From Escherichia coli (GTDB taxonomy: Bacteria; Pseudomonadota; Gammaproteobacteria; Enterobacterales; Enterobacteriaceae): a stretch of DNA of 64,000 nucleotides. Below are positions 28,933 through 29,219 of the stretch, in pieces. Below the pieces are notes generated by a model. The model was not told where the DNA came from and did not search any database. It saw only the letters and a program-made list of their open reading frames with translations. The DNA lies in the NCBI RefSeq assembly GCF_024502345.1, contig NZ_JALDNN010000001.1, one strand, 5' to 3'. Position numbers and translations under genes: made by a program. Within the stretch, counting starts at the first letter, position 1; every line of letters starts with the position of its first letter.

Positions 28933-29219
28933 AACACTCAAAGAAAGAGGTAATTTTAGAATGAAATTATCTGTGATGATTATTAATACACTGCAGAGAA
29001 ATAAAAAACAATCTGAAGCATGCTCTGAAACATCCTACTCTGTCACTCTAATGATGGCACCTTGCTCTTCTTATAAAGAAGGGAACAATTAAGAATATTA
29101 AATTTTCAAACTTTCATCAACTTCACATCAAGAAATTAAAAAATTTAAACATTAATCTAAATAATAACAACCTGATCACATAATCGGGTACGATTTTATC
29201 CGATAACTATAATGCTATA

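Follow-up and report, generated by a model that had tools for sequence, protein, structure and literature searches.

The described locus closest to the one analyzed here is O-island 1 (OI-1; z0021-z0024) of Escherichia coli O157:H7 EDL933, which has been described as a putative fimbrial island (PMC10877973, PMC9387321). In EDL933, espX1 (z0025) comes first in the island, followed after 301 nt of intergenic DNA by the genes for the fimbrial subunit, the chaperone and the usher and, last, by z0021. The product of z0021 (fmrA) is a reported repressor of flagellar motility (PMC9387321), and the role of this gene is also taken here from a second source (PMC10877973). The literature search recovered reviews that cover OI-1 and fmrA, and none that deals with a 43-codon open reading frame (ORF) or with a mapped promoter in the intergenic region.

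The present analysis concerns a stretch of 64,000 nt of E. coli DNA (hereinafter, the window), which runs through the beginning of the E. coli chromosome in the reverse direction and includes, among other genes, ribF, rpsT, nhaR and nhaA. A first-pass annotation had pointed to an ORF of 43 codons with a Shine-Dalgarno (SD) sequence in this DNA and had proposed that it was either a remnant of a lost gene or a small protein, with a chance ORF considered quite likely as well. This ORF belongs to OI-1, which lies between rpsT and nhaR. It is almost certainly no real gene and very likely a chance ORF, with no coding function, in the orphaned upstream region of a fimbrial operon.

The O-island 1 locus and its 2,445-bp deletion

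The features of the locus are the following (positions are those of the window):

27511-28932, plus strand: espX1, encoding the type III effector EspX1; intact, 473 aa
28933-29186, plus strand: AT-rich spacer of 254 nt, 28% GC, collinear with EDL933 (L001 6084-6340)
28945-28950, plus strand: Shine-Dalgarno-like AAGAGG, with a 10-nt spacer to the ATG
28961-29092, plus strand: 43-codon ORF (ATG to TAA), judged to be chance and non-coding
29093-29189, plus strand: conserved block with a sigma-70-like site; low variation, 5.2 segregating sites per 100 nt
29187-29189, no strand assigned: deletion junction with a 3-nt microhomology, 2,445 bp lost, by blastn against EDL933 (L001 6341-8785)
29187-30518, plus strand: C-terminal fragment of the usher (pseudogene), after the PGAP annotation of the identical RM8352 locus
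30531-31490, plus strand: last gene of the operon, intact, encoding a 319-aa fimbrial-family protein; by position, the homologue of EDL933 z0021 (fmrA)

The window is collinear with the EDL933 island on both sides of the junction. In the blastn comparison, positions 27400-29189 align with EDL933 L001 4551-6340 at 94.9% identity, and positions 29187-31600 align with L001 8783-11196 at 97.5% DNA identity. The spacer is what remains of the intergenic region that separates espX1 from the subunit gene, with which the OI-1 chaperone-usher fimbrial operon begins; in EDL933, the subunit gene starts at L001 6385. Lost with the deletion are the 44 nt that directly precede the subunit start codon, the complete subunit and chaperone genes, and about 373 codons at the start of the usher gene. 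The breakpoint is located between positions 29189 and 29190, downstream of the ORF, which is contained in its entirety within the retained upstream region. The two flanking genes are those named by the first-pass annotation, namely espX1 at 27511-28932 on the plus strand and, from 29187 onwards, an usher pseudogene truncated at the N-terminus. In the RM8352 record, PGAP describes the latter as 'fimbria/pilus outer membrane usher protein, incomplete, missing N-terminus'; the spacer of this O121 strain is 100% identical to that of the window.

The deletion is widely inherited. The identical junction was found in all 9 deleted strains that were fetched, and it is spanned by about two thirds (26 of 39) of the evenly sampled genomes that carry the island. 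Conversely, in EDL933 and four other strains, the sequence of the ORF region precedes intact subunit, chaperone and usher genes. A terminator-like hairpin followed by a T-run is present at 29170-29199; the T-run, ACGATTTTAT, arises from the junction, and strains with an intact operon lack it.

The outcome of the deletion is a decapitated operon, with its upstream region stranded beside the usher fragment. This upstream region includes the conserved promoter-like block, which the deletion joins to the usher fragment and the intact fmrA homologue. In the window strain, transcription from the putative promoter in this orphaned region could continue through the usher fragment as far as the fmrA-like gene, which may still be transcribed in this way. 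Several other peculiarities of individual records were observed at this locus. The espX1 gene, which is intact in the window, carries a frameshift or an internal stop according to the annotation of several strains, O121 RM8352 among them, and z0021 is marked as 'frameshifted' in the RefSeq record of EDL933, whereas its homologue in the window is intact. In one of the aligned sequences (L010, NZ_AP023206.1), the normally chromosomal region with espX1 and the usher fragment lies on a sequence that is labelled in its record as a plasmid of 404 kb, pMTY18781-1_lncX3.

The 43-codon ORF and its possible origin from a lost gene

The coordinates, length and translation of the ORF, along with the AAGAGG motif about 10 nt upstream, were confirmed in both the sequence and the mechanically generated ORF list. 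The ORF starts with the ATG at 28961-28963, 28 nt past the espX1 stop codon, runs for 43 codons to the TAA stop at 29090-29092, and encodes the peptide MKLSVMIINTLQRNKKQSEACSETSYSVTLMMAPCSSYKEGNN. The original description of the ORF as unannotated holds for RefSeq, where none of the PGAP-annotated records examined has a feature called at this position, but not for other public protein collections, in which E. coli and Shigella sonnei entries under the name 'hypothetical/uncharacterised protein' contain exactly this 43-aa peptide, from at least 1000 contigs. The cluster to which the peptide belongs includes amino-acid variants as well as shorter forms of 38 aa and 34 aa, so that both sequence and length vary freely, and its members come from E. 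coli and Shigella with one exception. The exception is a 1,324-aa EccCa protein of Streptomyces that is placed in the same 90% cluster and is evidently a clustering artefact.

An ORF of this length is no more than chance would yield. Among 5000 dinucleotide shuffles of the 254-nt spacer, 454 (9%) contained, in any frame, an ORF of at least 43 codons starting with ATG, and this number rose to 904 when GTG and TTG starts were counted as well. In the entire 64-kb window, there are 166 ATG-initiated ORFs of 43-99 codons, 11 of which are preceded by an SD-like 4-mer. The suggestion that a chance ORF is likely in such AT-rich DNA is therefore accepted with respect to chance but not with respect to the reason given, because AT-richness raises the frequency of stop codons (8.1% per codon expected in the spacer); a chance ORF is plausible here because many frames and starts are sampled.

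The alternative origin put forward by the first-pass annotation, a remnant of a lost gene, could be understood in two ways: the ORF might be what is left of a deleted subunit, chaperone or usher gene, or of an older regulator gene that once was located upstream of the operon. The ORF does adjoin a deletion scar in a decaying operon, and the stop codons that accumulate in it across strains resemble the decay of a pseudogene. However, EDL933 and other strains with a complete operon have the same DNA ahead of it, already interrupted by stops, and therefore the ORF cannot derive from the deleted genes. Its position upstream of the junction at 29187-29189, with the deletion starting downstream of the ORF, likewise excludes a remnant of the deleted fimbrial genes. 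Furthermore, the similarity search that had been proposed as a check was run with tblastn, using the EDL933 subunit, chaperone and usher, EspX1 and the 319-aa protein as queries against the spacer, and was complemented by a six-frame translation of the spacer. It returned only short noise matches and no meaningful similarity. The blastp comparison of the peptide with the EDL933 operon proteins and EspX1 also returned only noise, and the best E-value across the tblastn and blastp searches was 0.035, in a tiny (254-nt) search space. The Pfam search with the 43-aa peptide retrieved no families at E-values up to 10, and no longer frame could be reconstructed from any haplotype. Taken with the evidence on position, these results make an origin of the ORF from a lost gene extremely improbable.

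The region did not show features of a structured RNA either. The sole match in the Rfam scan of the region was a chance-level snoRNA outside the ORF (E-value 0.88), the predicted fold of the RNA was no better than those of shuffled sequences (z = -1.15), and the repeat search detected only short chance repeats. Elsewhere in the window, matches at Rfam gathering scores were obtained for the sok antitoxin RNA (34096-34248), the threonine operon leader (50838-50957), tpke11 (36982-37059), ES003 (18239-18291) and ES036 (45514-45556; only just above the threshold). None of these matches is unexpected in this part of the E. coli chromosome.

Variation of the reading frame across E. coli

The spacer was aligned with the corresponding sequences from 14 other E. 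coli genomes that were sampled across the range of identity and include 9 strains with the deletion and 5 with the intact operon. Among these loci, the 3' end of the neighbouring espX1 is variable. The reading frame is not conserved. At codon 17 (29009-29011), where the window has CAA, 11 of the 14 aligned strains have the stop codon TAA; EDL933 contains an additional stop at codon 10, and stops are also present at codons 21 and 23 in 2 of the 14 strains. In the SD-like sequence, G28949 is replaced by A in 11 of the 14 strains, which changes the motif to AAGAAG. Conversely, the ATG is invariant in all 15 sequences, the first 16 codons are free of stops in 14 of the 15, and a short 16-codon form, MKL[S/T]VMIIN[S/T]LQRNKK*, is common. 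Non-conservation of the frame across strains, which the first-pass annotation itself had named as the evidence that would count against a small protein, is thus what is observed, with TAA at codon 17 in most strains.

The alleles of codon 17 were counted in 5,426 complete E. coli genomes using allele-specific queries of 30-32 nt in which every 28-nt megablast seed spans position 29009. The region is present in approximately 3,618 of these genomes. The CAA haplotype was found in 542 genomes (15% of the carriers), and TAA, in three haplotypes represented by 934, 1,751 and 337 genomes, respectively, was found in at least 3,022 genomes (at least 83.5% of the carriers), so that the CAA and TAA haplotypes together account for 3,564 of the approximately 3,618 genomes that carry the region. 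The exact window haplotype over the 70 nt from the SD sequence up to and including codon 17 (100% identity) is limited to 152 genomes. The figure of 1,751 is the number of genomes that contain the codon-17 allele-specific 32-mer of the commonest haplotype; in the sampled strains with this haplotype (L003 and L007-L010), an 8-bp deletion is present at about 29101-29108, just past the stop codon of the ORF.

The substitution pattern in the ORF looks neutral, as would be expected of an unconstrained sequence. In the small sample of 15 sequences, the differences comprise 6 synonymous, 16 nonsynonymous and 3 nonsense changes; the per-site ratio of nonsynonymous to synonymous changes is 0.84, and changes at codon positions 1, 2 and 3 occur in the proportion 9:6:10. 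The excess of synonymous or third-position changes that would indicate purifying selection was not found in the ORF across these 15 sequences. The density of segregating sites per 100 nt is 17.4 in the ORF and reaches the maximum for the spacer, 35.7, in the 28 nt that precede it, compared with the low value in the block at 29093-29189.

These data also bear on the explanation that the ORF is a lineage-restricted, young proto-gene, made translatable by a TAA to CAA change at 29009 and an A to G change at 28949, and located towards the 3' end of the espX1 transcript, where it may be expressed by read-through from espX1. The window haplotype, found in 152 of the 5,426 complete genomes (many of which are from STEC, for example O121), combines the two favourable alleles; TAA is both the majority allele and the allele of the most divergent haplotypes, which fits CAA as the derived state; and the interval from espX1 to the ORF contains no predicted terminator. 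It is physically possible for the ORF to be translated from a transcript that reads through from espX1. However, the exact 20-mer scan, with one genome per species, found no Escherichia outgroup by which the change at codon 17 could be polarized. The peptide has no recognizable feature or family, the members of its cluster vary in sequence and include the 38-aa and 34-aa forms, and an ORF that is translatable is not by that token functional. We accordingly give the proto-gene only a slim chance. If true, it would represent a small, well-dated case of within-species birth of an ORF by loss of a stop codon.

In the predicted RNA structure, moreover, the SD and the AUG of the putative proto-gene are paired. 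The hairpin in question, at 28948-28972, is an AU-rich helix of 11 bp with a 3-nt loop, in which the GG of the SD pairs with the region around the AUG. This hairpin is probably fortuitous because the variants at 28949 and 28970 in other strains disrupt its pairs without compensation.

The four contigs that matched in the outgroup scan were all E. coli-like. These island copies, 95-100% identical (L015-L018), very likely reflect contamination or mis-binning: three belong to MAG bins assigned to Alistipes, Collinsella and Bacillota, and the fourth is on a contig of the Tannerella forsythia ATCC 43037 assembly.

The conserved block and comparison with known systems

The ORF segment varies about three times as much as the block at 29093-29189, which follows it and is probably the real functional element of the spacer. 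The block contains the sigma-70-like site TTAAAA-18-AATAAT at 29136-29165 (L001 6287-6316), which in EDL933 is the only such site on the plus strand between espX1 and the subunit gene; the number of promoter-like sites is not above that in shuffled sequences. The position and conservation of the block are suggestive, at most, of the core promoter of the fimbrial operon. If the spacer DNA has any function, it would most likely be regulatory and reside in this block.

The location of this site is also relevant to the explanation under which the short 5' part of the ORF, 9-16 codons in most strains, is a translated mini-ORF or leader that would modulate the 3' end of espX1 or the expression of the fimbrial operon, with the 43-codon form being merely an extended version. 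The invariant ATG in the 15 sequences and the absence of stops over the first 16 codons in 14 of them are what such a mini-ORF would predict. However, the only promoter-like site of the fimbrial genes is located downstream of the ORF, which therefore would be outside the leader of the fimbrial operon. In addition, the mini-ORF is cut to 9 codons in EDL933, its residues 4, 6 and 10 are variable, most strains have only a weak SD, and nowhere in the spacer is variation higher than in the 28 nt ahead of the ATG. A translated leader thus appears very unlikely.

The preferred explanation remains that of a chance ORF. The frame is open only through the CAA that the window haplotype has in place of TAA at codon 17, and the match to the SD is good only through its G in place of A at 28949, both of which are minority alleles. 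Several observations do count against this verdict: the ATG is retained throughout the sample, and the short 16-codon form is common; the window haplotype combines a good SD with an open frame 28 nt past the espX1 stop; and automatic pipelines other than PGAP call a hypothetical protein here.

In practical terms, a candidate small gene is removed, and the appearance of a 'hypothetical protein' in the output of some pipelines is explained; in itself, this matters little. The by-product is a clear anatomy of the locus, including a widely inherited deletion that decapitates the OI-1 fimbrial operon.

Among the known systems, the locus is most directly comparable to the upstream region of OI-1 in EDL933: the spacer is collinear and 93-95% identical, and the order rpsT, espX1, fimbrial operon, nhaR is the same. 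The differences are that the window strain lacks the 2,445 bp and that the EDL933 frame is interrupted by stops at codons 10 and 17. What the ORF shares with de novo proto-genes is that one base difference at a stop codon leaves the frame open in a minority lineage and that a second base difference improves the SD. Finally, the ORF closely resembles the spurious 'hypothetical protein' ORFs of AT-rich, horizontally acquired intergenic DNA, in that it is short, belongs to no family, has no homologues outside the species, combines an ATG with a fortuitous purine-rich stretch upstream, and is called by some pipelines but not by PGAP; from such ORFs, it does not differ in any substantial respect.
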